In this document: piece by piece, positions 3,917-64,000 of the stretch
Numbering within the stretch: the first letter of the stretch is position 1
How the letters are laid out: every line of letters starts with the position of its first letter
Assembly (NCBI GenBank): GCA_043810865.1
Contig: JBDRNS010000005.1
Location: 2,821-66,820, forward strand
Origin: an archaeon
GTDB lineage: Archaea > Nanobdellota > Nanobdellia > Pacearchaeales > GW2011-AR1
Direction: 5' to 3'
DNA: 64,000 nucleotides
Program-made: the position numbers and the translations under genes
Notes under the pieces: model-generated
What the model was told of the DNA's origin: nothing
The model's database searches: none
The model's input: the letters and a program-made list of their open reading frames with translations, nothing else

Positions 3917-4234
3917 TTGATGAAAACCTTCAATGAACGTTGTTATGAAATTTTGAAAAAAGTTCCTGCGGGAAAAGTCACGACTTACAAAGCAATTGCG
4001 CATAAGTTAAATTCAAAAGCTTATCGTCAGGTTGGAATGGCGATGAACAAAAATCCTTACGCTCCAAAAATTCCCTGTCATCGCGTTATAAACAGCGACG
4101 GAAAAATTGGAGGATTTAATTCCGGAGTAAAAAAGAAAATTGAAATGCTGAAAAAAGAAGGCGTTGAAGTGAAAAATAATAGGATTGATTTAGGGAAGTT
4201 TGGGTTTTATTTCTCTCGCTTCGCTCGCTATTGA
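3917..4234 (+). CDS. ogt: methylated-DNA-protein-cysteine methyltransferase (MGMT/Ogt DNA-binding domain family)
   Basis: 'PCHRVI' active-site Cys motif; 'YKAIA' helix; about 100-aa single-domain form. Confidence 0.6.
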   Translation: MMKTFNERCYEILKKVPAGKVTTYKAIAHKLNSKAYRQVGMAMNKNPYAPKIPCHRVINSDGKIGGFNSGVKKKIEMLKKEGVEVKNNRIDLGKFGFYFSRFARY

Positions 4235-4790: not shown

Positions 4791-4950
4791 TTCCCACCCG
4801 CCCACCCCCAGAAAATTAATTAATAAAAATCCCAAAAATAATTACTAAAATTACTTTTTACTACAAAATCATTCACCATCACAAAATTTGTCTCTTTTCG
4901 CCCGATTGATGAAATAAATTTAATCTAAAAATTCCGAGAAAGTTATAAAA
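4791..4950. repeat. Mosaic intergenic repeat family, copy A (CCCACCCGCCCACCC + AATTAATAA + TTTGTCTC...GATTGAT...TTTAAT module)
   Basis: Shares 'TTCCCACCCGCCCACCC...AAAATTAATTAATAA' and 'AAATTTGTCTC..CG..C..ATTGAT.A..TTTAAT' with copies B, C, D, F. Confidence 0.6.
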
Positions 4951-26177: not shown

Positions 26178-26420
26178 GTTCCCACCCACCTCAAAAACAA
26201 ATTAATTAATAATGAAATTCTTGAAGAATAATAATCTCTACCACAAAGTTGCTTGCCCACCCAAAGAACTTTTTTAACTAATTTTCACCCACCCGAAATT
26301 TGTCTCACTCGCAAACTCACCCGAATTGATAATTTAAAATTTAATAGAGAAAGTTTTTTAGTAGGAACATTAGAGGTTGCAGGATTACTAGAAAATTGCT
26401 TATTTAGATTAGAAGAATCT
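26178..26420. repeat. Mosaic intergenic repeat family, copy B
   Basis: 'GTTCCCACCCACC...AATTAATTAATAA', 'AAATTTGTCTCACTCGCAAACTCACCCGAATTGATAATTTAAAATTTAATAGAGAAAGTTTTTTAG', '...TTAGAAGAATC'. Confidence 0.6.
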
Positions 26421-31248: not shown

Positions 31249-31374
31249 ATTGCGTTCGCTTAACTCACTATTGATAATTTTAAATCTTTTTATTGTAATT
31301 TGTTCCCACCCGCCCACCCTTCAAGAAAATTTTAATAAAGAGTATTTTTTAGCAAGGAGGTTAGAAGTTGCATG
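31249..31374. repeat. Mosaic intergenic repeat family, copy C
   Basis: 'GCGTTCGCTTAACTCACTATTGATAATTTTAAAT', 'GTTCCCACCCGCCCACCC', 'TTTTAATAAAGAGTATTTTTTAGCAAGGAGGTTAGAAGT'. Confidence 0.6.
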
Positions 31375-39778: not shown

Positions 39779-40024
39779 TTTTTAAATCTTTCTGTTTTGT
39801 TATTATTATAGAATTAATACAGATTAAGGATGTGTCTTTTTTGAGTGGAAAGAAACATATAAAAACTTTTCATCATTAAATTTTTGGTAATAATAAAGAG
39901 GTAGACAACCGATGAAAAAGAAAGGAGCAAAGGGAAAGAAATCTAAGAAATAAGTTAACTCTTTTTAATTTTATTTTTCTTTTTATTTTTCTTTTTATTT
40001 TTTAAGTTTTTGTTTTTTATAAAT

Positions 40025-40288
40025 TGCGTTCGCTTCGCTCACGAATTGATAATTTAATTTTAATAGAGAAAGATTTTTGAGTTGAGAGATTGAAATTAAT
40101 TTTTTGTTTTTAACTTTTAATTTTGTTCCCACCCGCCCACCCCTAAAAATAGTTAATAAAAAAGATTTTTTAGCATAGGGTTAGAATCCCAATAATTTGA
40201 TTAACTATCCAGAAGTTCTTTTTGTTAACATTAAGCCAATAAGCGAGCACGAAGTGCGAGCGAAGAAAGGTGGGTGGAGCGAAAGAAA
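40025..40288. repeat. Mosaic intergenic repeat family, copy D (most complete copy)
   Basis: 'GCGTTCGCTTCGCTCACGAATTGATAATTTAATTTTAATAGAGAAAGATTTTT', 'GTTCCCACCCGCCCACCCC', 'AGTTAATAAAAAAGATTTTTTAGCATAGGGTTAGAATCC', terminal 'GCGAGCACGAAGTGCGAGCGAAG...GGTGGGTGGAGCG'. Confidence 0.65.
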
Positions 40289-49056: not shown

Positions 49057-49178
49057 CGCCCCGACCAGGAATCGAACCTGGATGTCCAAAAGGACCGCGA
49101 GTTCAGTGCAGTTCTTAGAAGGTGCGGAACCTCGGTTCTGCGTTCGAGTCGCGTGCAGTACCATTGTGCCATCGGGGC
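49057..49178 (-). tRNA. tRNA-Ser (anticodon CGA), type II, with about 41-nt intron (49102-49142)
   Basis: Acceptor GCCCCGA/TCGGGGC, anticodon stem CGCGA/TCGCG, loop CTCGAA|C, variable arm GTCC-TTTT-GGAC, T-arm CCAGG-TTCGATT-CCTGG, discriminator G; intron has central GCAG/CTGC helix (BHB-like). Confidence 0.6.
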
Positions 49179-53591: not shown

Positions 53592-54539
53592 TTACTCTTT
53601 GTTGATATATTCATAAGCGCTGTAAGCTGCTGTGCAACCGTCGGCGACTCCTGTGATTAATTGTTTAAACGGTTTGTCTGTCACGTCGCCTGCCGCGAAA
53701 ATTCCAGAGATGTTTGTTTCAGATGTCATGTGATTTATTATGATTTCATTTTTTTTATTTAGTTTTACGCCGAGCGGTTTTGCCAAATCAGAAAGAATAA
53801 TGTGCCCGATTGCGATGAAAATTCCTTCCAATCTTAATTCTTTGCTTCCTTTGTATTGTTTGTCCAGAATAACTGACTCGACATTATTTTTTCCTTTAAC
53901 TTCAACAATGTTTGTGTTGTTTATTACTTCTATTTTTTTGTTGTTTTTTATTCTTTGCAAGTTTATTGGTTCTGGATGTATCTGGGAACCCCGGTAAATT
54001 ATGTAGACATTTTTTGCGTGTTCGCTTAAAAGAAGAGCGTCTTTTGCCGCGCTATCCGAGCCGCCCACTACTGCAATTGTTTTGTTTTTGTAGAGCGGAC
54101 CGTCGCATAAAGCACAGTAACTTATTCCTCTGTTCTCAAATTCCCTGCTTCCTTTTACATTTTCAGGAAGTTTTCTCCATTTTGTTCCTGTCGCAAATAA
54201 AATAGTTTTTCCTTCATAAGAATTTTTGTTTGTTTTTATAGAGAACAAATTTTTTTCTTTTTTTATATTTTCAACTTTTTCATTTTTTATTTCAACCAAA
54301 TCATAACTTCGCGCGTGCTCTTCAATTTTTTTTGCGAGTTCAAATCCTGAGAGTTTTATGAAGCCAGGATAGTTTTCAACTATGTTTGTTGTTGTTATTA
54401 CGCCGCCGACAGGCAGTTCTGTTCCGTGTGTAAAACCCAAAACCAGAGTTTTCATTCCCAGACGTGCAGAATACATTGCTGCTGCCAGTCCTGTTCCGCC
54501 TGCGCCGATTATGATGAAGTCGAATTTTTTTTCTGCCAT
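53592..54539 (-). CDS. trxB: thioredoxin-disulfide reductase
   Basis: 'FDFIIIGAGGTG' FAD motif, 'CALCDG' redox CxxC, 'VVGGSDSA' NADPH motif. Confidence 0.85.
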   Translation of the reverse strand: MAEKKFDFIIIGAGGTGLAAAMYSARLGMKTLVLGFTHGTELPVGGVITTTNIVENYPGFIKLSGFELAKKIEEHARSYDLVEIKNEKVENIKKEKNLFSIKTNKNSYEGKTILFATGTKWRKLPENVKGSREFENRGISYCALCDGPLYKNKTIAVVGGSDSAAKDALLLSEHAKNVYIIYRGSQIHPEPINLQRIKNNKKIEVINNTNIVEVKGKNNVESVILDKQYKGSKELRLEGIFIAIGHIILSDLAKPLGVKLNKKNEIIINHMTSETNISGIFAAGDVTDKPFKQLITGVADGCTAAYSAYEYINKE

Positions 54540-56632: not shown

Positions 56633-56703
56633 ATGGTCCTAGGAGGAGTCGAACCTCCCCTTCCTCGGTGTAAACGAGGTGTTCTACCGATAGACTATAG
56701 GAC
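56633..56703 (-). tRNA. tRNA-Val (anticodon TAC)
   Basis: Acceptor GGTCCTA/TAGGACC, anticodon arm CCTCG-TTTACAC-CGAGG, T-arm GGAGG-TTCGACT-CCTCC, discriminator A; 71 nt, no intron. Confidence 0.7.
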
Positions 56704-56793
56704 CTTAAAAGTAAAATTGTTTATCTGTTAAAAAGGTTTTCTGTCACCACTCTTTCCCAAAAACTTTTAAAGGGTTCTTCTCCTTGATTTATC

Positions 56794-58626
56794 ATGGCTA
56801 ATAAAGAATCAGAAAATTTAGAGCAGGAAATTCCGGGAATGAATCTTGATAGCCGATATTCTGCAAGAAATCCTCTCCCAAAAGTTTCTACAGAAGCGCA
56901 GAAAGAAATGGAGAAGACGAAAAAAGAACTTGAGAAACTTAAGAATGCGATTGTTAAGAAGTATGATTTTATTCAGGCAATCGGAATTTTGCCGCCGCAG
57001 ACATTGAAGTCGTTTGTAGAGGATGAACTTGGCGAGAAAGGCAGAGAAATTCCCGAGGCGGAATTTGAAAAACTTCTGAAGAAAATTCACCTTTACATAA
57101 TTGTTCCTGAGGAAAAATTCAAAGAGATACCAAAAATAAAAAAAGAAATTGTCGGGGAAGTTGAGAAGTCAAAACAAAATGTCTGGCTTCATATCAAGAC
57201 ACCAGTTGATGTTTGGGAGACATGTCTTGACAGCAAGTTTGAACTTGTAAGTGCTATAGCAATGTCTTTTCCTCTTTATGACAAAGGAATTCTTAGCGCG
57301 TTGAGAGTTGCGGAGATTCACAAGTCACTTGTTTTGCAGAAATTTGAGAGGTATGTTGTTTCATATGTCCTCGGCGGAAGCTTGGTGAGGGGAGATGTGA
57401 CAAAAGAATCAGATGTTGATGTTTTTATAATTATTAATGATACCGACGTGAAAAGAATGCCGAGGATTGAACTTAAAGAACGACTGAGAAGCATAATTTT
57501 TCAGTATATTTCCGAAGCATTGGGGCTTGCGGGAATTAAGAAAAATCTTTTGAATGTTCAGGTTTATTTGCTTACAGATTTTTGGGAGGCGGTTAAGGAT
57601 GCGCATCCGGTTATGTTTACTTTTATCAGGGACGGTGTGCCGATTTATGACAGGGGAACTTTTATGCCGTGGAAAGCGCTTTTGAAAATGGGAAAACTGA
57701 AACCAAGTCCAGAGGCAATTGATTTGTTCATGTCTTCAGGAGACAAGACAGTTAAGAGAGCGAAGCTTGCACTGATGGATATTCTTGTTCATGATATTTA
57801 TTGGGGAGTCATAACTCCGAGCCAGGCATTGCTTATGCTTTACGGCTCGCCTCCGCCGACGCCAAAACAAATTGTGAAAGACATGGATAAAATTTTTGTT
57901 GAGAATGAAAAAATGCTTGAGAAAAAATACGTGAATATTCTTGAGAAAATTGTCGGGTTGTATAAAGATTACGAGCACGAGAAGTTGAAAGAGATTAAGG
58001 GTGCTGAAATTGACAAATTGCTTAAGGATACTGAGGACTATATTAAACGCCTCAAGGAATTGAGAGAGCAGATTGAAAAAAGAACGCAGGAAAAAACAAT
58101 CGGGCAGATTTACGACGATGTCTTCGGGCTTTTGGAAAATATATTCGGGAAGAAAACAAAGGACAAGCTTACGGAAGAATTTGAGAAGGAACTTGTCAAA
58201 ACAGGAAAACTTCCGCAGCAATCAACAAAAATTCTTAATAACATAGTTAATGCGCGTGCAGAGTTCAGGAAAGGAAAATCAAATTCGCAGAAAATTGATG
58301 ATGCGAGAAAGGAAGCGGCAATTCTTATCAATGATTTGATTGATTATTCACAAAGAAAAGAATTACTTGCCGTCGAGAAATCCAGAATAAAAATGAAATA
58401 TTCTGAAAACGGCAAGGAGAAACTTGCTGAACTTCTTGTCTGCAACGGGAAAAGTTTTTTGATTGTTGGAAATGTGATAAAGAAAATAACAAGCAAAATC
58501 GAAAATTCAAATATCAATGAACTTTCAAAAGCGGTTGAAGAAAGCAAAGGAAAGCCGACGGAAATTAATCCCAAAGTTTTTGAACTTGTGAAAAAAGAAA
58601 TCGGGGATTTTGAGATTGTGCTGTGA
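56794..58626 (+). CDS. large Pol-beta-superfamily nucleotidyltransferase-domain protein with helical C-terminal region (paralog of 61656-62651)
   Basis: 'VLGGSLVRGDVTKESDVDVFIIIND' (GS-x10-DhDh); conserved downstream 'LTDFWEAV..HPVMFTFIRDGVPIYDRGTF..KALLKMGKLKPSPEAI'. Confidence 0.5.
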   Translation: MANKESENLEQEIPGMNLDSRYSARNPLPKVSTEAQKEMEKTKKELEKLKNAIVKKYDFIQAIGILPPQTLKSFVEDELGEKGREIPEAEFEKLLKKIHLYIIVPEEKFKEIPKIKKEIVGEVEKSKQNVWLHIKTPVDVWETCLDSKFELVSAIAMSFPLYDKGILSALRVAEIHKSLVLQKFERYVVSYVLGGSLVRGDVTKESDVDVFIIINDTDVKRMPRIELKERLRSIIFQYISEALGLAGIKKNLLNVQVYLLTDFWEAVKDAHPVMFTFIRDGVPIYDRGTFMPWKALLKMGKLKPSPEAIDLFMSSGDKTVKRAKLALMDILVHDIYWGVITPSQALLMLYGSPPPTPKQIVKDMDKIFVENEKMLEKKYVNILEKIVGLYKDYEHEKLKEIKGAEIDKLLKDTEDYIKRLKELREQIEKRTQEKTIGQIYDDVFGLLENIFGKKTKDKLTEEFEKELVKTGKLPQQSTKILNNIVNARAEFRKGKSNSQKIDDARKEAAILINDLIDYSQRKELLAVEKSRIKMKYSENGKEKLAELLVCNGKSFLIVGNVIKKITSKIENSNINELSKAVEESKGKPTEINPKVFELVKKEIGDFEIVL

Positions 58627-58684
58627 TAAAAGATAGTTGTAAACTGAACAAAACATTTAAATATAATTCCCATTTTATTCTTCT

Positions 58685-58897
58685 ATGAAATTAAATATTG
58701 AAATAACAAAAGGTGAGAAATTTTTTATTGCGAGAGTTCCTGAATTGGGAGTTACAACGCAAGGAAGAACAGTGGAGGAAGCAAAGAAAAATCTTAAGGA
58801 AGCAGTTCAACTGCATCTTGAATCAGTGGTTGAATATATGATAGAAAAAGGTAATGTTAAAATTGATAATAACAAGATAATTTCTTCAAAAAATTAA
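58685..58897 (+). CDS. hicB: HicB-family antitoxin (UPF0150)
   Basis: 'KLNIEITKGEKFFIARVPELGVTTQGRTVEEAKKNLKEAVQLHLE'. Confidence 0.7.
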   Translation: MKLNIEITKGEKFFIARVPELGVTTQGRTVEEAKKNLKEAVQLHLESVVEYMIEKGNVKIDNNKIISSKN

Positions 58898-58898
58898 A

Positions 58899-59117
58899 AT
58901 GTCTAAGTTGCCAAGAATTTCTGGCGTAGAGATTATAAAAATTTTGACTAAATTCTTTGGTTTTAGAACATTAAGGCAAAGAGGAAGTCATGTAACTCTT
59001 ACTAATGATTTGGTTTTTCTCACTGTTCCTTTACATTTGGAATCAGATAAGGGAACATTACTAGCAATTTTAAAAGACGCAAATATCTCAAGAGATGATT
59101 TTTTGGAATATGTTTGA
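58899..59117 (+). CDS. hicA: HicA-family mRNA interferase toxin
   Basis: 'GFRTLRQRGSHVTLTN...TVPLHLESDKGTLLAILKDANISRDDFL' (YcfA/HicA fold motifs); 2 nt after hicB. Confidence 0.75.
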   Translation: MSKLPRISGVEIIKILTKFFGFRTLRQRGSHVTLTNDLVFLTVPLHLESDKGTLLAILKDANISRDDFLEYV

Positions 59118-59138
59118 AGTCAAATTCTTTAATAAGGA

Positions 59139-59423
59139 TTAAAGTTTTTCATTTGGGAGCGGCTCTTTCATACCCTGAAGTTTTTCTATTGTTCCTTCAT
59201 TTACTTTTGTTGCAAATTTTGCCAATTTTGAAAGTCCGAAAAATACGGCTGCAATTACGAGAAGAACCAAACCTACTTTCCAACTAAAAAGAAAAGATAT
59301 AACTGCAATAATAAGAAAAATTATAGATAACGCGAAAAGTATAACACGGCTTATTCTGTTTTTTGCATTAGAAACCTGAACGTGCATTGCTGTTAAGTCC
59401 AATGCAGTGTTTTTTATGCTCAT
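59139..59423 (-). CDS. small membrane protein (2 TM)
   Basis: 'ISRVILFALSIIFLIIAVISFLFSWKVGLVLLVIAAVFFGL'. Confidence 0.4.
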   Translation of the reverse strand: MSIKNTALDLTAMHVQVSNAKNRISRVILFALSIIFLIIAVISFLFSWKVGLVLLVIAAVFFGLSKLAKFATKVNEGTIEKLQGMKEPLPNEKL

Positions 59424-59494
59424 TGTTTTTTCAAGAGAAGATGCTTTTTATATTTTATGAGAAGTTTTAAAAACTAAATTTCTTCTCTCATACA

Positions 59495-59761
59495 ATGGTT
59501 AAAGGTAAAGTTATTCAGTTTCGCAGAGGAAGGCACAAAATTCATGAAAAGCATTTTTTAATTGAAATTCCAAATGTTGCAACAAAAAAAGATGCGGAGA
59601 AATTTGTCGGCAAAAACGTGGAATGGATTTCTCCCGGAAAGTTAAAAAAAGTTATCAAAGGAAAAATCGCGGCGCCGCACGGGAATAAAGGTGTTGTTCG
59701 CGCGATTTTTGAGAAGGGCTTGCCTGGACAGGCGATAGCGACGGAGGTTGAGATAAATTAA
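59495..59761 (+). CDS. rpl35ae: ribosomal protein L35Ae
   Basis: 'KGKIAAPHGNKGVVRAIFEKGLPGQAIATEVEI'. Confidence 0.8.
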   Translation: MVKGKVIQFRRGRHKIHEKHFLIEIPNVATKKDAEKFVGKNVEWISPGKLKKVIKGKIAAPHGNKGVVRAIFEKGLPGQAIATEVEIN

Positions 59762-59762
59762 A

Positions 59763-60299
59763 ATGGGGCTTAGAAAGGCAGCGTCGTATTCAAAGAAGAA
59801 AGTTGTTCCTTATACGAGAATTAGCAAGAAGAAACAGAAGTCATTTATCAAGACAGTTCCGCAGCAGAAGATTGTTAAGTTTTCTATGGGAAATGAGCAG
59901 TTTTTTAGGGAAGGGAAACTGCCTTATGAGATTACAGTTATCACGACGGAGAAAGTTCAGATAAGAAACAATGCTCTTGAGGCGTGCAGACAGTATCTTA
60001 ACAAGCAGTTTGACAAGGCAATTCCCAAAGAATATTATTTCAGGATAATTCCGTTTCCGCACCATATTCAGAGGGAGAACAAAATGCTTACCGGGGCAGG
60101 GGCGGACAGAATGCAGACAGGAATGCAATTGTCTTTCGGGAAAGCGACGAACAAGGCGGCAATTTTGAAAAGGAATGACAGGATTTTTTTCGTGGCTGTT
60201 GCAAACAAAAAAGCGGAACAGCTTGTAAGAAATCTGGTGAAAAAGGTTCACCCTAAACTCCCGTGCAAGATAAAAATTATTTCTGAAGTCAAAAAATAA
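59763..60299 (+). CDS. rpl10e: ribosomal protein L10e (L16 family)
   Basis: L10e/L16 core 'KLPYEITVITTEKVQIRNNALEACRQYLNKQ...AGADRMQTGMQLSFGKATNKAAILKRNDRIFFVAVANKKAEQLVRNLVKK'; 178 aa. Confidence 0.75.
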   Translation: MGLRKAASYSKKKVVPYTRISKKKQKSFIKTVPQQKIVKFSMGNEQFFREGKLPYEITVITTEKVQIRNNALEACRQYLNKQFDKAIPKEYYFRIIPFPHHIQRENKMLTGAGADRMQTGMQLSFGKATNKAAILKRNDRIFFVAVANKKAEQLVRNLVKKVHPKLPCKIKIISEVKK

Positions 60300-60340
60300 T
60301 TTTCAATGTGAAACAAACAGGATTATTTATTTGTCTGCTC

Positions 60341-60493
60341 GTTTCACTCGCAGATATTAATATAAATTATTAAATAAATAATTCTTTAGTCCATAAATCA
60401 CTACCGGTTGATTTCTTTTAATTTGAATTGTCAATGATGAGCGAAGCGAGGGAAATTATTGATAACAAACTCGTGAACGAAGTGAGCGCGAGA
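60341..60493. repeat. GC-box intergenic repeat, copy I
   Basis: 'TTGTCTGCTCGTTTCACTCGCAGATATTAAT' and 'GATGAGCGAAGCGAGGG...CTCGTGAACGAAGTGAGCGCGAG' (reverse complement of the copy H box). Confidence 0.55.
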
Positions 60494-60553
60494 AATTTTT
60501 AAGTAAAGTTTTGAGTATATAGAAATTTATAAATCCTGATTTTTATTTAAGAT

Positions 60554-60970
60554 ATGTTCTTTAGGAGTTTGCTGAACAGAGACGGAAACAGAGGAAATGA
60601 TTCTTTAGAGCAGGGTAATTCAAGATATCCTTTGGGAGAACTAAGAAGACACGTTGAAAGGAGAATTGAAATTGTTTATGTTGATTCTTTTATTGAGTCA
60701 GAAAAAAGAAAAAGAGAGATTAGGAGAGAATTGAACACTCTTGTTTTCCCGCCTTTTAAGGATGGTTTTTATTTAGGTTCCATGAATGGAGGGATTCCTA
60801 CTTTTGGTTTGGTTTATTTTAATCGCAAATATCCTGACGAATCAAGACAATACGTTTTGTCAATAGAGGATGAAAACGGAAAAGAAATTTACAGGAACCA
60901 CATTTCTCAGGAAAGGGTAAGACAATTTAATCATAGTTTGGTAAGGAATTCTCATTTGCACCTTAATTGA
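60554..60970 (+). CDS. hypothetical protein
   Basis: 138-aa ORF. Confidence 0.3.
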   Translation: MFFRSLLNRDGNRGNDSLEQGNSRYPLGELRRHVERRIEIVYVDSFIESEKRKREIRRELNTLVFPPFKDGFYLGSMNGGIPTFGLVYFNRKYPDESRQYVLSIEDENGKEIYRNHISQERVRQFNHSLVRNSHLHLN

Positions 60971-61022
60971 TTATACTACCAAGTAGTAACACTATGGAAA
61001 GATTTATAAAGTTGGAATTTGT

Positions 61023-61655
61023 GTGATTTTTATGGCTGAAGATAATCAAAAGGAGCTTACTCCTGAGGAAATGAGAGAAGAAATGAGAAAATCAAGAATG
61101 CAGGATTTAGAAAATGAATTCTATTTGGGTCTTGTTGGAGCTAATGCATTAAAAAGGAGCCCTGAATTATATGGAAAGATTGCAACTGAAATTGGTAATT
61201 CTTTATACTCTCAATTTATGACTGGCGATGATGCAGAAAAATTAAGGAAGAAGATGAGTAAGCAAGAAATGAGGGAGAGAGATGTTCTTGGAATTGCAGA
61301 TATGCCTGAATCTCCTTCAAATTATGCGGTTATGAAATTTGGTATAAGTGCTGTTCATAATGCTGTTGCAGGATTGCCTCTTGGGAATCTTGAAAATATA
61401 GTTAGGAAAGTTGCACCAGAAGTTAAATTAGAAATTCCAGAGCAATTAAGATTATATTCCGGAAATGAAGAAAAATTAAGTGAGGAAATTAGGGCAGATG
61501 TTAACAAATATAAGAATTTGGTTCTTACTGCAGTAACAGAGAGTGCTGCATATAAGTTAATTGATGCGCATAGATATGACGGATTAAATGCTACAGCAGA
61601 AGAGCTTGGAAAGAAATATAATCCAAAAGAAAGAGTTCTTGAAGTGAGAGAATAA
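61023..61655 (+). CDS. hypothetical protein
   Basis: 210-aa ORF, charged N-terminus. Confidence 0.35.
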   Translation: MIFMAEDNQKELTPEEMREEMRKSRMQDLENEFYLGLVGANALKRSPELYGKIATEIGNSLYSQFMTGDDAEKLRKKMSKQEMRERDVLGIADMPESPSNYAVMKFGISAVHNAVAGLPLGNLENIVRKVAPEVKLEIPEQLRLYSGNEEKLSEEIRADVNKYKNLVLTAVTESAAYKLIDAHRYDGLNATAEELGKKYNPKERVLEVRE

Positions 61656-62651
61656 TTATTTCTGACTTATAATTTCATTGACAAGTTTTGCCATTACCTG
61701 CAAAAATTCTTCTGCACGTTCTTGCCATTCATCTATTTCAACGCCTTTCAAGTCGTTTATTTCGCGATGGACAATTTTTTTGTGCAGCATTAACAAATCT
61801 CTGTACCAAAGAACGTATTTCATTTTCAGCATGTTTTTATTTACAAAATTTTCCTTCAAATCGAGAGCGATGTTTTCCGGAGAGGAAGGCATTATTCCAA
61901 GAGCAATCAAAGCGGCTTGCGCGGAATCAACCATTGCCCAATACAATCCTTCGACAGAACTCATTTCTGCTGTCTTGCTGTTTAAGATATGAATGGGTGC
62001 ACGTTCAAGCAAACTGTGAACTGATTCAGGTGTTGCTTTTATTTTTCCCGCCAGAAGAAGATATTTCAACGGTTCAAAAAATCCGCCGAAGTCAATAAGT
62101 GATTCTCCGTCGCGAATTATGTTTATAACAACAGGATCTCCTCTTAACAAGTCCTCCCACCAGGTTGTCAGTTTTATCGTGTTTATGTGCAGGTCCTTTT
62201 TGTAAGGATTTTTTCTGACAAGTTTTTCAAGTTCTTCCCTGTACCATGCGATGAGTTCCTGATCCCATCTTATTGTTGCGTCGTCGATAATAATCATTAT
62301 GTCTATGTCAGAACCGCGCGTGTTTTCCTGTTTTGCCGTCGAGCCAAAGAGGATAACTGATTTTATTATTTTATTGAACTGCTGATATGCTTTTGTTGCA
62401 AAGTCAAGTGCAATCTCGGGTTCTGTTCTTAACTGTAATGTCGGCGTGTCTCTTACACTTTCAACTTTTCTCTTTTTCTCTTTTTTTATTTTGTGGTGAA
62501 TTGCAGGAGATTTTATTTTTTTGTGTTTTTTCACACGCACTTTTTTATGCTTGTGATGTCTTTGCTTTTTTTTAGAGCTTTTGCTTTTATGTCTCTTAGA
62601 TTTTTCCAAACCTTTTTTCAATTTTGAAAGAAATTTGTCCTCTTTGTCCAT
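61656..62651 (-). CDS. Pol-beta-superfamily nucleotidyltransferase-domain protein with highly basic His/Lys-rich N-terminus (paralog of 56794-58626)
   Basis: 'ILFGSTAKQENTRGSDIDIMIIIDD'; 'LTTWWEDLLRGDPVVINIIRDGESLIDFGGFFEPLKYLLLAGKIKATPESV' aligns with the 56794 protein. Confidence 0.5.
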   Translation of the reverse strand: MDKEDKFLSKLKKGLEKSKRHKSKSSKKKQRHHKHKKVRVKKHKKIKSPAIHHKIKKEKKRKVESVRDTPTLQLRTEPEIALDFATKAYQQFNKIIKSVILFGSTAKQENTRGSDIDIMIIIDDATIRWDQELIAWYREELEKLVRKNPYKKDLHINTIKLTTWWEDLLRGDPVVINIIRDGESLIDFGGFFEPLKYLLLAGKIKATPESVHSLLERAPIHILNSKTAEMSSVEGLYWAMVDSAQAALIALGIMPSSPENIALDLKENFVNKNMLKMKYVLWYRDLLMLHKKIVHREINDLKGVEIDEWQERAEEFLQVMAKLVNEIISQK

Positions 62652-62726
62652 TTACACCTCTTTATTATATATCTTACAACATATATTATGTATTTTTAGT
62701 TTTTAAATTTTGTTTATTTGTATCAT

Positions 62727-62940
62727 TCGCTTTGCTCGTTCGGATTGATGATTAAAATTTTTTTGTTAATCTGTTCCCCGCCCACCCACCTCTCAAAAAT
62801 AATTAATAAGAAAAGATTTCTTAGCGATGATATTAGAATCACAAACAATTTGTTTTGTTTTTGTAAATTAGGTTCGCTCCAAAGTCGCCCGTGATTATCT
62901 GGCTCGGTTCCAGACATTCGTCAAGGAATTTCGCTTAAAG
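62727..62940. repeat. Mosaic intergenic repeat family, copy F
   Basis: 'CGCTTTGCTCGTTCGGATTGATGATTAAAATTT', 'GTTCCCCGCCCACCCACC', 'AATAATTAATAAGAAAAGATTTCTTAGCGATGATATTAGAATC', 'GGTTCGCTCCAAAGTCGCCCGTGATTA'. Confidence 0.6.
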
Positions 62941-63039
62941 AAATATTAATACATTAAATTTATCTGTGGAAAATTCGAGCAGAGCCGGATTTGGAATTGT
63001 ATTAATAGTGAGCGGTAGCGACGGAAATTTTCATAAAAT

Positions 63040-63981
63040 TTATTCCATCGGCGTTCCGCCCATTCTGCTTCCGCCTCTTTGCTGTCTTTGTCCGCCGAGT
63101 TCTGCCGGAAGATTTGAAAATCCTGCGCCGAATGTTTCGTAATTTATCGGAGGGAGCATGCCGCCGTAACCACCGAAGTAACCCTGTGTCAAGCCAACTG
63201 CCTGATTCCAATACGGTGCTGTTCCTGAATAAAACGGAGAGCCAAGTGCTTCAAATGTAGGCCCTATAGGAGATGTTTTTTGGAACTGCCACCAGTGCGC
63301 TGCCTCGACAATTTGTCTTACATCGTCAACTTTTCCGCCTTTTTTTCTAAGAGCATCCATTACTTCCTTGAAATCAACGTTTCCCATTCCCATCGGAAGT
63401 TCTACATTTTCCATTCCGAAATTATCTGAAAGATGGACATGCTTCAGGAACGGCGCAACTTTTTCCGCTTCTTTGATAATTTCCTCGCTTGTAAAACCAA
63501 ACTGCCTCAACTGATTTATGTGCCCGACATCCCATGTGACGCCGATTAATTTTTCCGCTTGTTTTTTTGCATCTGATGCAGACATGCCTTTTTCTGTAGC
63601 TTTCATGATAAACTGTTTTCTTGAGCCCTCAACCATTTTTTTTACATCTTCTGCTCTTGAGAGTCCGAAGCCGGCAGGAGGATTTTCAATGCTGATTATC
63701 GGTGATTTGTCCTTGAATTTATCATAAGCGGCGAATGCTGCGTTTCCGAAACTTTGCGCTGATTTTTCAAGAGCGAATGTTTCAGCCGGCTTGTAAATTT
63801 CAGGGTTAAGAGGACGTAAATCCTCCATAAGTTTTTGCATAGCAAATGAGGATTGATTTCTATTATGCGCTTCACCTAACCTTTTTCCAAATTCCTTAGA
63901 TATTTTCTTCAAACCTTCTCTTTTTTCTTCTGTTCCATATTTATATGCGCGATTAAAGAGTGTTTGAAGATGGGAATACAT
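63040..63981 (-). CDS. xylose-isomerase-like TIM-barrel (sugar-phosphate isomerase/epimerase family) protein with Gly-rich C-terminal tail; N-terminus may extend past the window edge
   Basis: 'WDVGHINQL', 'KHVHLSDN' metal-site motifs; C-terminal 'GYFGGYGGM...GGQRQQRGGSRMGG'. Confidence 0.45.
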   Translation of the reverse strand: MYSHLQTLFNRAYKYGTEEKREGLKKISKEFGKRLGEAHNRNQSSFAMQKLMEDLRPLNPEIYKPAETFALEKSAQSFGNAAFAAYDKFKDKSPIISIENPPAGFGLSRAEDVKKMVEGSRKQFIMKATEKGMSASDAKKQAEKLIGVTWDVGHINQLRQFGFTSEEIIKEAEKVAPFLKHVHLSDNFGMENVELPMGMGNVDFKEVMDALRKKGGKVDDVRQIVEAAHWWQFQKTSPIGPTFEALGSPFYSGTAPYWNQAVGLTQGYFGGYGGMLPPINYETFGAGFSNLPAELGGQRQQRGGSRMGGTPME

Positions 63982-64000
63982 ATCTTTTATTTGTTCCTCG

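Follow-up and report, generated by a model that had tools for sequence, protein, structure and literature searches.

The 64,000-nucleotide stretch of DNA analyzed here (the window) carries two nucleotidyltransferase (NTase)-domain proteins, NTase-A and NTase-B (A and B), which face each other across a HicB-HicA toxin-antitoxin pair and two ribosomal protein genes. The initial annotation took this arrangement to suggest an accessory defense or signaling island inserted around the ribosomal genes, which raises the question of whether A and B are mobile defense components or part of the core genome. All open reading frames were recovered as that annotation gave them, and the motifs it quoted are present in the translations.

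Gene content and conservation of the locus

Table 1. Genes, protein domains and short repeats of the locus, in window coordinates.
Feature	Position	Strand	Evidence or remark
tRNA-Val(TAC)	56634..56704	-	ARAGORN; Rfam tRNA 60.5 bits; immediate upstream neighbor of A
NTase-A, 610 aa, long A-type MNT-HEPN fusion	56794..58626	+	ORF
A residues 57-166, degenerate N-terminal MNT-like domain (pseudo-NTase)	56962..57291	+	
A residues 167-296, catalytic MNT domain	57292..57681	+	G195 S196 ... D207 x D209, D216, R279, D286
A residues 297-400, HEPN domain	57682..57993	+	conserved E307, K391, H395
A residues 401-610, C-terminal extension	57994..58623	+	AF2 secondary structure; BLASTP
HicB-like antitoxin (UPF0150), 70 aa	58685..58897	+	Pfam UPF0150 28.0 bits vs cut-off 27.3
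HicA toxin, 72 aa	58899..59117	+	Pfam HicA_toxin 44.5 bits, E 1.6e-11, cut-off 27
Small membrane (TM) protein, 94 aa	59139..59423	-	ORF; TM-type matches, all weak
Ribosomal protein L35Ae (eL33)	59495..59761	+	Pfam 78 bits; NCBIfam 87.5 vs cut-off 85
Ribosomal protein L10e/uL16	59763..60299	+	Pfam 79.5 bits; NCBIfam 155.3 vs cut-off 91
Short intergenic repeat copy GAGCGAAGCGAGGGAAATT	60439..60457	+	19-nt motif, 3 copies in window vs 0.02 expected
Hypothetical ORF, 138 aa	60554..60970	+	variable L10e-to-B interval
Hypothetical ORF, 210 aa	61023..61655	+	variable L10e-to-B interval
NTase-B, 331 aa, short B-type MNT-HEPN fusion	61656..62651	-	ORF
B HEPN domain, residues 201-331	61659-62051	-	
B MNT domain, residues 72-200	62052-62438	-	
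B basic tail, residues 1-71	62439-62651	-	pI 10.8, net +24
C-rich intergenic motif copy CCCACCCRCCCACC, upstream of B	62777..62790	+	4 window copies vs 0 expected; family D1
AP_endonuc_2-like protein, C-terminal part	63040..64000	-	Pfam PF01261 36.9 bits vs cut-off 31.1

The HicB-HicA pair is genuine, both members scoring above their Pfam cut-offs (Table 1), with further matches of HicB to HicB_lk_antitox (22.5 bits, Pfam) and to a PHROG HicB-like family (2.9e-7), and of HicA to a PHROG toxin family (9.2e-9). The Pfam matches of L35Ae and L16/L10e each have an E value of ~1e-22. The small membrane protein gave no tblastn match across 82 related loci; the two hypothetical ORFs match no family in Pfam, NCBIfam, PADLOC or PHROG, and their homologs in relatives are weak and sporadic. 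What had been called a repeat element is a 19-nt motif (GAGCGAAGCGAGGGAAATT), the flanks of its copies sharing little similarity beyond the core. The AP_endonuc_2-like ORF extends past the window end, with no in-frame stop before 64000.

The gene order A > L35Ae > L10e ... < B < AP_endonuc_2-like is retained in 34 of 40 informative loci, the AP_endonuc_2-like gene being found as upstream neighbor of B in the same number. These five genes form a conserved syntenic block of the core genome. Median identities over the 40 loci are 65.3% for A and 66.0% for B, alongside 68.8% for L35Ae and 64.6% for L10e. A and B are core genes of these tiny DPANN archaea, conserved to the level of ribosomal proteins. 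A is carried by at least 575 species-level genomes, and its best 120 homologs align over the full length at 67-80% identity (57-79% among the top 120 for B). It is a tight family, comprising 716 of 1.84 billion representatives, and it reaches as far as Aenigmarchaeota; all of its named matches belong to Nanoarchaeota/Woese-/Pacearchaeota or to Aenigmarchaeota.

HicAB does not share this conservation. It was not found in the A-to-L35Ae slot of 81-82 of the 82 related loci scanned, the closest relative (L003) lacks it, and the one informative locus of 40 with HicAB near A (L055) has the pair ~6.7 kb downstream. HicAB, with the small membrane protein, is unrelated to the core block and represents a strain-specific insert at a variable slot within it; the toxin-antitoxin pair is the sole recent insertion at the locus.

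The AP_endonuc_2-like product is a xylose-isomerase-like TIM barrel; it shares 62% identity with the C-terminal half of a 615-aa homolog (L001) and is similar to MJ1311 (E 2e-8) and weakly similar to the phosphodiesterase CbiR. In divergent relatives, Aenigmarchaeota among them, family members adjoin the same TIM-barrel gene, and in several of these relatives one member lies immediately 5' of L35Ae. A single array on one contig (L085) reads 570 aa > 715-aa TIM barrel > NT273 > NT414 > L35Ae; in another (L084) the TIM barrel precedes NT256, and NT381 overlaps L35Ae. Four Aenigmarchaeota loci have the order X (~550-590 aa) > TIM barrel > (0-3 genes) > NTase. Linkage to L35Ae is not universal, being missing at three of these four loci and on one marine Woesearchaeota contig. 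Within the 6-10 kb examined, the Aenigmarchaeota loci hold one family member only, so a heteromer would not be obligatory. In reduced genomes, gene order can outlast functional coupling.

Domain architecture of NTase-A and NTase-B

Both proteins exceed the Pfam NTP_transf_2 cut-off of 21 (A, 32.2 bits; B, 40.0 bits) and are paralogous NTases of the Pol-beta superfamily, of the MNT kind, as first annotated. BLASTP aligns them over 176 aa at 32% identity (E=4e-25), a tblastn alignment takes in the NTase core (B90-327 against A182-427, 30%, E=3e-29), and HHalign gives 98% probability for the NTase domain and likewise for the domain downstream. This downstream domain of ~120 aa, correctly recognized as common to both, is a HEPN domain, fused to the NTase in A and in B. 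The two proteins are ancient paralogs within a DPANN-archaeal family of MNT + UPF0332-type HEPN fusions. The family has no characterized member, and neither protein matched a well-characterized housekeeping family.

In A, the catalytic MNT domain is preceded by a degenerate copy in which H99-L-Y101 stands where D-x-D is expected. The catalytic residues of A listed in Table 1 do not vary in 46 A-family sequences and are conserved across the superfamily; in B numbering, G-S, D-x-D, a second DD, R180, D187, E209 and K291 are shared by 80% or more of the 104 diverse representatives compared. The NTase active site is intact in both proteins. The structure models are of moderate quality (pLDDT ~70), with the catalytic domain of A modeled poorly. 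Instead of the coiled-coil C-terminus initially assigned to A, AF2 predicts a helical extension (401-528, pLDDT ~75-90) common to mid-length relatives, followed by a small beta-rich/alpha domain (529-610, beta-rich part 531-572) confined to long forms; BLASTP of mid and long forms extends to A residues ~490-610.

The basic N-terminus reported for B is real, but its length differs among homologs and in some it is missing. The core of B has a pI of 5.5 and the conserved cores of the family are not basic; with a basic tail so variable, the proteins show no evident capacity of their own to bind RNA. The HEPN domain of A lacks an R..H dyad, E and Y occupying those positions. The B clade conserves R284-x5-H290 with an adjacent Tyr, and B may on this account have an RNase or self-AMPylation role. 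The dyad is not conserved superfamily-wide, position 284 being E, K or R and position 290 R, Y, M or A.

Candidate functions

We consider it probable that A and B represent the MNT-HEPN domain pair of HepT/MntA and kanamycin nucleotidyltransferase (KNTase), domesticated to a core housekeeping function. That they are a core housekeeping MNT-HEPN fusion is highly probable, and their residue conservation makes NTase activity likely. The mechanistic part is inferred from the fold, residue conservation and the arrangement of genes. By analogy with KNTase/ANT, the HEPN domain would contribute the half of the active site that binds substrate/NTP, and would not act as a toxin RNase. Joint action of the A-type and B-type paralogs, perhaps as a heteromer, is suggested by the finding that all sampled Nanoarchaeota-type lineages have them side by side or linked, and we entertain such cooperation tentatively. 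More doubtful is the proposal that the target is RNA or otherwise translation-linked, with NMP transferred to a hydroxyl of a conserved macromolecule, either an RNA 3' end or a protein Tyr/Ser/Thr; the EndoIV-superfamily TIM-barrel neighbor would then be a candidate for a partner preparing or undoing the phosphodiester. Our best guess is a KNTase-like, possibly heteromeric enzyme with a translation-linked substrate.

Other readings account for parts of these data. A defense island, comprising CD-NTase/OAS-like enzymes or an MNT toxin-antitoxin pair together with HicAB, would explain the genuine HicAB module between the two NTases, the toxin-antitoxin module near the cluster in one relative (MazE-PIN, L083), and weak partial NTase-core matches to the PADLOC candidates PDC-S09, PDC-M05A and PDC-M70A and to the MntA and HalB models. 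Every such match, however, spans ~30-60 residues around GS..DxD and lies far under its cut-off (MntA, 19.9 and 27.5 bits vs 60; HalB, 18 and 23.8 vs 190). Phages and plasmids gave no tblastn match to the family, A and B matched no PHROG family, and PADLOC and fold searches lent no support to the proposed CD-NTase/OAS/cGAS kinship, the fold matches including no CD-NTase or OAS structure. Set against a core block that rarely has HicAB nearby, the island reading is largely refuted and highly improbable. Scarcely better placed, and disfavored, is a known RNA NTase in disguise, whether an enzyme of the class I CCA-adding kind or a tRNA NTase resembling poly(A)/poly(U) polymerases. Superfamily membership, the adjacent tRNA and ribosomal protein genes and a weak MTPAP-like palm match fit it, but that match reaches 18 bits vs a cut-off of 27 and is confined to the GS..DxD stretch, PDB sequence and fold searches returned no CCA or PAP structure, and the C-terminal domain is HEPN, not a CCA neck/body/tail or a PAP central/RNA-binding domain.

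Small-molecule nucleotidyltransferases of the KNTase/ANT/Lnu type, acting on a sugar-like metabolite, antibiotic or cell-envelope precursor with the TIM barrel as sugar isomerase/epimerase of the same pathway, are unlikely: NCBIfam ANT models score 13-19 bits vs cut-offs of 340-350, resistance-type enzymes are patchy and lack conservation at ribosomal-protein level, the operon-like L35Ae link and housekeeping context speak against secondary metabolism, and the large extra domains of A suggest a macromolecular partner. A little less unlikely is a fused MNT-HEPN toxin-antitoxin of the FhepTA type, self-contained in B (perhaps also in A) and fixed in the chromosome. Its HEPN RNase would be restrained by self-oligoAMPylation of the adjacent tyrosine, and it might, for instance, switch growth or dormancy or process RNA as a housekeeping nuclease. 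The dyad of B would fit, but its x5 spacing differs from the FhepTA motif R-phi-x-x-x-H, and it is missing in A and most of the superfamily. FhepTA and HepT/MntA are also patchy and mobile, unlike a syntenic core family constrained to the level of ribosomal proteins, and the MntA equivalog model is matched far below its cut-off.

Comparison with known systems

The domesticated MNT-HEPN reading agrees with the observation that MNT-fused HEPN domains usually lack RNase residues and have been domesticated as modifying enzymes, KNTase and GlnE being examples (PMC3710099). HepT/MntA and FhepTA (PMC7641770; Yao et al. 2026, PMC13000451) share the two domains, in FhepTA in the same order, and HepT and MNT structures rank among the best fold matches of A and B. 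The B clade resembles these systems in its R-x5-H dyad and adjacent Tyr. Apart from the low MntA scores and the lack of the dyad in A and most of the superfamily, the difference lies in distribution: these systems are patchy and reside on mobile elements, and A and B are core, syntenic and highly conserved. Over the full architecture, the best structural matches are kanamycin nucleotidyltransferase ANT(4') and the ANT(9)/AadA aminoglycoside adenylyltransferases, single chains in which a helical HEPN-like (KNTase_C clan) domain likewise comes after an NTase. Outside the GS..DxD motif, there is no significant sequence similarity to these resistance enzymes, and A has ~350 extra residues. The AF0298/UPF0332 HEPN proteins (PDB 2hsb) and archaeal MNT-HEPN pairs are small stand-alone proteins in two-gene modules, abundant and variable in thermophiles, whereas A and B are fused, conserved and single-copy per paralog.

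[quoted passage not shown] The initial suggestion that the family may be undescribed holds for its function, but a cluster with the same features had been listed. A and B fit this cluster by architecture (MNT and HEPN in one polypeptide), DPANN restriction and housekeeping context, the likeness being one of description. Compared with the single cluster of that list entry, the present analysis adds two deep paralogs, A-type and B-type, a long A form whose N-terminal MNT copy is dead and whose C-terminus is extended, and conserved linkage to L35Ae and an AP_endonuc_2-like TIM barrel.

Gene order around NTase-A and NTase-B

The region, from an archaeon with a low-GC genome (about 35%), encodes two nucleotidyltransferases, the 610-aa NTase-A and the shorter 331-aa NTase-B. 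Its open reading frames are exactly as described in the initial annotation and are listed in the table. Intergenic sequence from 60250-63100 gave no Rfam match. The HicB-HicA pair had been correctly recognized: the two genes adjoin, separated by 1 nt, HicA and UPF0150 score above their cut-offs (HicB_lk_antitox, at 22.5 bits, falls below its cut-off of 27), and PHROG matches are to HicB-like and toxin families.

Features of the region and associated elements (window positions, unless a related locus is named)
Feature	Position	Strand	Evidence or remark
Thioredoxin-reductase-like gene	53592-54539	-	2-3.5 kb upstream of NTase-A
NTase-A	56794-58626	+	ORF, 610 aa
HicB-like gene	58685-58897		UPF0150 (Pfam), 28.0 bits, cut-off 27.3
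HicA	58899-59117		Pfam, 44.5 bits, cut-off 27
Membrane protein	between HicA and L35Ae	-	ORF, 94 aa
L35Ae	59495-59761		Pfam-confirmed
L10e/uL16	59763-60299		Pfam-confirmed (L16/L10e)
Two hypothetical ORFs	between L10e/uL16 and NTase-B		138 and 210 aa
NTase-B	61656-62651	-	ORF, 331 aa
TIM-barrel gene (AP_endonuc_2-like)	63040-64000	-	runs off window end at 64000
Gly/Tyr-rich tail of TIM barrel	63040-63250	-	C-terminus, low complexity
C-rich motif CCCACCCRCCCACC	4793-4806, 31305-31318, 40128-40141, 62777-62790 (also 26181-26222)		intergenic; 4 matches, 0 expected
Short repeat GAGCGAAGCGAG(G/A)GAAAT	60439-60457	+	3 copies, 0.02 expected
Short repeat, further copies	4208-4226, 40022-40040	-
tRNA	49057-49178	-	122 nt; Rfam, 41.6 bits
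tRNA-like segment	2654-2870	+	Rfam, 18.7 bits, sub-threshold
540-590-aa protein, L083	6459-8240
540-590-aa protein, L085	2171-3883
540-590-aa protein, L086	424-2088
540-590-aa protein, L087	1839-3572
540-590-aa protein, L088	229-1860
MazE-PIN, L083	13102-13795		adjoins L35Ae
Fic protein, L088	7358-8299		immediately 3' of NTase

NTase-A and NTase-B each have thousands of homologs, and the best 120 for A (all full-length, 67-80% identity) and the best 120 for B (57-79%) all belong to Nanoarchaeota, Woesearchaeota or Pacearchaeota. A scan of species-representative genomes placed an A ortholog in at least 575 of them. Of 82 related loci, 40 have the complete set (A, L35Ae, L10e, B, AP_endonuc_2-like gene), and the order A(+) > L35Ae(+) > L10e(+) ... 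B(-) < AP_endonuc_2-like(-) is kept in 34 of the 40 informative loci, defined as those whose sequence continues downstream of A for at least 8 kb. Over the same 40 loci, median identities to the window proteins are 65.3% for A, 66.0% for B, 68.8% for L35Ae, 64.6% for L10e and 55.0% for the TIM barrel; A and B thus match the slow evolution of the ribosomal proteins. B has no relative among 50,697 phage and 72,556 plasmid records, and PHROG holds no family for A or B. The earlier view of the region as a defense or signaling island is therefore not supported.

HicAB occupies the slot between A and L35Ae in none of the 82 related loci; a single one (L055) has a HicAB pair elsewhere, located downstream of A at a distance of about 6.7 kb. 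The slot holds only a 69-aa ORF in the closest relative (A 80% identical), and a UPF0020 methyltransferase in two others, preceded by an ion-channel-like gene or by a small unannotated ORF. From this comparison, the NTases and ribosomal proteins form the conserved block, with HicAB and the small membrane protein as the insertion. MazE-PIN and Fic genes stand next to L35Ae and the NTase, respectively, in two more distant loci (see table). Different toxin-antitoxin or AMPylation-type genes have entered variable slots of one conserved cluster in separate lineages, and the slots seem permissive for small selfish modules. Defense-island prediction calls for caution here, as a toxin-antitoxin pair between NTase genes can have entered a housekeeping block incidentally.

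Like the window, no fewer than 11 related loci have the thioredoxin-reductase-like gene (70-86% identity) 2-3.5 kb upstream of A, so that synteny reaches beyond the reported region. Two contigs labeled as bacterial, L026 (JAHYJW010000002.1, 'Patescibacteria group bacterium') and L081 (DATJPO010000032.1, 'Omnitrophota bacterium'), carry archaeal L35Ae and L10e together with an A that is 65-67% identical; L026 also has B and the TIM-barrel gene, and L081 stops short of that region. Both are very likely mis-binned DPANN contigs.

Two short repeats recur in the window. The C-rich motif CCCACCCRCCCACC, one copy of which lies between B and the TIM-barrel gene, usually has TTTGTT on its 5' side and an AT-rich stretch on its 3' side, and may be a transcription signal or small element. 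Two copies of GAGCGAAGCGAG(G/A)GAAAT lie about 100-600 nt from a CCCACCCRCCCACC copy; this repeat has no Rfam match, and the poor alignment of its flanks indicates a short motif, not a long element. The 122-nt tRNA was missed by ARAGORN and presumably contains an intron. Its halves form inverted repeats of 70 and 51 nt (80-83%) with 2654-2723 and 2820-2870, so the segment spanning these could be a second intron-bearing tRNA copy, a split copy or a degenerate one.

Domain architecture and conserved residues

NTase-A and NTase-B are fusions of a minimal nucleotidyltransferase (MNT) domain and a downstream helical HEPN domain. Both match NTP_transf_2 (PF01909) above the curated cut-off of 21 (A, 32.2 bits; B, 40.0 bits), both carry the hG[GS]-x9-13-Dh[DE]h catalytic motif (A: G195, S196, D207, D209; B: G103, S104, D115, D117), and a four-helix HEPN fold (UPF0332/KNTase_C clan) was found in each. 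The initial annotation was right to call them uncharacterized MNT-type enzymes; homologs carry the JGI name 'predicted nucleotidyltransferase / UPF0332 family'. Sequence and profile searches of the PDB gave no match outside a GS..DxD stretch of about 30 residues. The two proteins are paralogs by BLASTP (E=4e-25, 32% identity, 176 aa); tblastn also covers the NTase core (E=3e-29, 251 aa), and HHalign gives 98% probability for NTase and HEPN domains alike.

The catalytic motif is invariant within the A and B families, and 96-99% conserved across 104 superfamily representatives. Candidates for the third carboxylate are also conserved (D124/D216, 96%; D187/D286, 95%; B/A numbering), and the strand that usually carries this residue reads H-I-N-T / N-V-Q-V. 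As judged from these alignments, the NTase active site of both proteins appears intact and strongly constrained.

When 1.84 billion representatives were searched exhaustively with a profile, only 716 proteins were recovered at E<=1e-3 and 132 at E<=1e-30. The family boundary is sharp, with no merging into generic MNTs. Members take a short form (about 250-300 aa, core only), a mid form (350-470 aa, core plus the helical extension of A) or a long form (540-630 aa, resembling A, to which full-length identity is 30-50%). The mid-form profile recovers a large, well-conserved Aenigmarchaeota family; members named in cluster look-ups, among which few distant ones carry names, are Woesearchaeota, Nanoarchaeia and Aenigmarchaeota.

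Residues conserved in at least 80% of the 104 representatives (B/A) are G103/195, S104/196, D115/207, D117/209, D124/216, R180/279, G182/281, D187/286, G202/300, E209/307 and K291/391, together with D123 of B, where A has N215. The B clade further shares W-Y283-R284-D-L-L-x-L-H290-K291, in which R284 is at least 90% conserved and H290 is invariant (R-x5-H), whereas A has Glu and Tyr in place of this dyad and the superfamily is variable (E/K/R at 284; R/Y/M/A at 290). The HEPN R-x4-6-H RNase dyad thus appears not to be a family feature, and to be conserved only in the B clade. This agrees with the generalization (PMC3710099) that, in MNT fusions, the HEPN domain is usually devoid of RNase residues and is part of a domesticated modifying enzyme. 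A conserved Tyr beside the motif position (Y283 in B, Y390 in A) is a candidate oligoAMPylation site.

The N-terminus of A is a degenerate MNT copy: residues 57-165 can be aligned to 187-296 (z=8.7 by Smith-Waterman, 0/500 shuffles; HHalign E=1.4e-5 for non-overlapping segments), with D-x-D replaced by H99-L-Y101. Downstream of HEPN are a helical extension (401-528) and a small β-rich C-terminal domain, for which no match was found. The extension has no detectable likeness to the HEPN domain of A (HHalign P 0.7%) and is therefore not called a second HEPN. Foldseek matches of the A model to eukaryotic ribosomal protein chains were too weak (probability 0.2-0.6, E 0.06-0.5). B carries a Lys/His-rich tail of 71 residues with a pI of 10.8, against 5.5 for its acidic core; tail length varies among homologs, and some have none.

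Neighbors in divergent lineages

The linkage is kept in more divergent lineages, where locus assignments were backed by pairwise BLASTP and family members (NT followed by their length in aa) are found in the arrangements below. Locus L085 encodes, on one strand with gaps of 0-75 nt, a 570-aa protein > 715-aa TIM barrel > NT273 > NT414 > L35Ae. L084 has a 626-aa AP_endonuc_2 protein followed at 11 nt by NT256, and a second member, NT381, overlapping the start of L35Ae by 4 nt. The Aenigmarchaeota loci L083, L086, L087 and L088 share the order 543-593-aa conserved protein > TIM barrel (512-577 aa) > 0-3 genes > one mid-length member. The L35Ae-adjoining NT381 and NT414 are more A-like, as is NT441 of the Aenigmarchaeota; NT256, adjoining the TIM barrel, is more B-like. 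The convergent bracketing seen in the window looks as if it came by rearrangement from an older gene order (TIM barrel > B-type > A-type > L35Ae). The TIM-barrel linkage is the most general; that to L35Ae is common, not universal, being missing in L086-L088 and one marine Woesearchaeota contig.

The TIM barrel resembles uncharacterized MJ1311 (PDB 3wqo, E 2e-8); it also has a weak resemblance to the phosphodiesterase CbiR. Its Gly/Tyr-rich C-terminal tail, with RGG-like elements (…GYFGGYGGMLPP…GGQRQQRGGSRMGGTPME), is unusual for the AP_endonuc_2-like superfamily and reminiscent of RNA-binding tails. Directly upstream of the TIM barrel in all Aenigmarchaeota-type loci is the 540-590-aa protein (pairwise E 1e-49 to 1e-153), which has no Pfam or NCBIfam match, and for which no homolog was detected at that position in Woese/Pacearchaeota locus L001 or in L084.

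Possible function and relation to known systems

Several known enzyme classes share the nucleotidyltransferase core. Neither fold nor cyclase models placed A and B with CD-NTase/cGAS/OAS (CBASS), and no such structure was among the matches; no CBASS effector (phospholipase, TM, endonuclease, TIR etc.) is adjacent, the conserved neighbors being ribosomal proteins and the TIM barrel. No CCA-adding enzyme or poly(A) polymerase was among the structural matches either. The likeness to aminoglycoside ANT(4')/ANT(9) is structural only (NCBIfam 13.4-18.8 bits, cut-offs 340-350). None of these three assignments was retained. PADLOC and NCBIfam defense and resistance models matched only 30-60 residues around GS..DxD, far below cut-offs; in PADLOC and PHROG scans, neither the two NTases nor the hypothetical ORFs could be meaningfully assigned to a defense or viral family, and the variable small ORFs nearby matched no defense model.

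The pairing of MNT with HEPN is known from HepT/MntA toxin-antitoxin systems and from kanamycin nucleotidyltransferase (KNTase), and A and B, with MNT N-terminal to HEPN, are in this respect like Type VII HepT/MntA or fused FhepTA. However, they reach only 19.9 (A) and 27.5 bits (B) against the MntA equivalog model NF047752 (cut-off 60), over about 45 residues. FhepTA toxin-antitoxins, which are fused MNT-HEPN proteins with an RNase motif, reside on mobile elements (PMC13000451); A and B, unlike HepT/FhepTA, are neither patchy nor mobile, given their synteny, their presence in hundreds of species and the lack of phage and plasmid matches. The R..H dyad and adjacent Tyr retained by the B clade mean that B could still conceivably be an FhepTA-like, self-regulated RNase.

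We favor A and B as KNTase-like two-domain nucleotidyltransferases, in which a HEPN helix with E209, K291 (and H295) would complete the active site. The paralogs may cooperate, as A-type and B-type members form a tandem pair in L085 and are linked throughout the Nanoarchaeota-type genomes; there are precedents in dimeric KNTase and in MNT/HEPN hetero-oligomers, and A, with its dead N-terminal MNT copy, resembles a built-in pseudo-dimer. The substrate is most likely a conserved macromolecule tied to translation, as suggested by the operon-like L35Ae junctions, the nearby RNA methyltransferase and tRNA genes, and the basic tails of B. On the other hand, the cores of A and B are acidic to neutral, and gene order alone is no proof of coupling. 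Belonging to the EndoIV superfamily, the TIM barrel could unmask a 3'-OH or strip the nucleotidyl group. It is tempting, if improbable, to view A, B and the TIM barrel (plus the 540-590-aa protein in Aenigmarchaeota-type lineages) as a DPANN-specific, probably essential writer/eraser machine that reversibly nucleotidylylates some part of the translation apparatus, be it the 3' end of an rRNA or tRNA or a ribosomal protein (L35Ae, for example). If so, the smallest archaeal genomes would have recruited a toxin-antitoxin module into their core ribosome or RNA biology.

DPANN genomes are very small, and conservation at the level of ribosomal proteins in hundreds of species implies that A and B should do something important; they constitute a well-delimited and probably important DPANN core system. 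A family similar in architecture, taxon range and context was in 2019 a priority archaeal 'dark matter' target. Candidate partners (a second paralog, the EndoIV-like TIM barrel and L35Ae) and conserved residues for mutation are now at hand.

That family, cls.004259 (NEQ050), is present in 36 of 67 DPANN genomes (Makarova, Wolf & Koonin 2019, Table 1; PMC6393860). A and B are likened to NEQ050 by its description there, as a DPANN-restricted MNT-HEPN fusion in a housekeeping neighborhood. The kind of protein has thus been noticed before without an assigned function; judging by the literature found, the A/B paralog pair, the pseudo-MNT and C-terminal domains of A, the conservation at ribosomal-protein level, and the TIM-barrel and L35Ae linkage kept across two DPANN phyla appear to be new. 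Two domains that make up a mobile toxin-antitoxin system elsewhere have here become a core gene.
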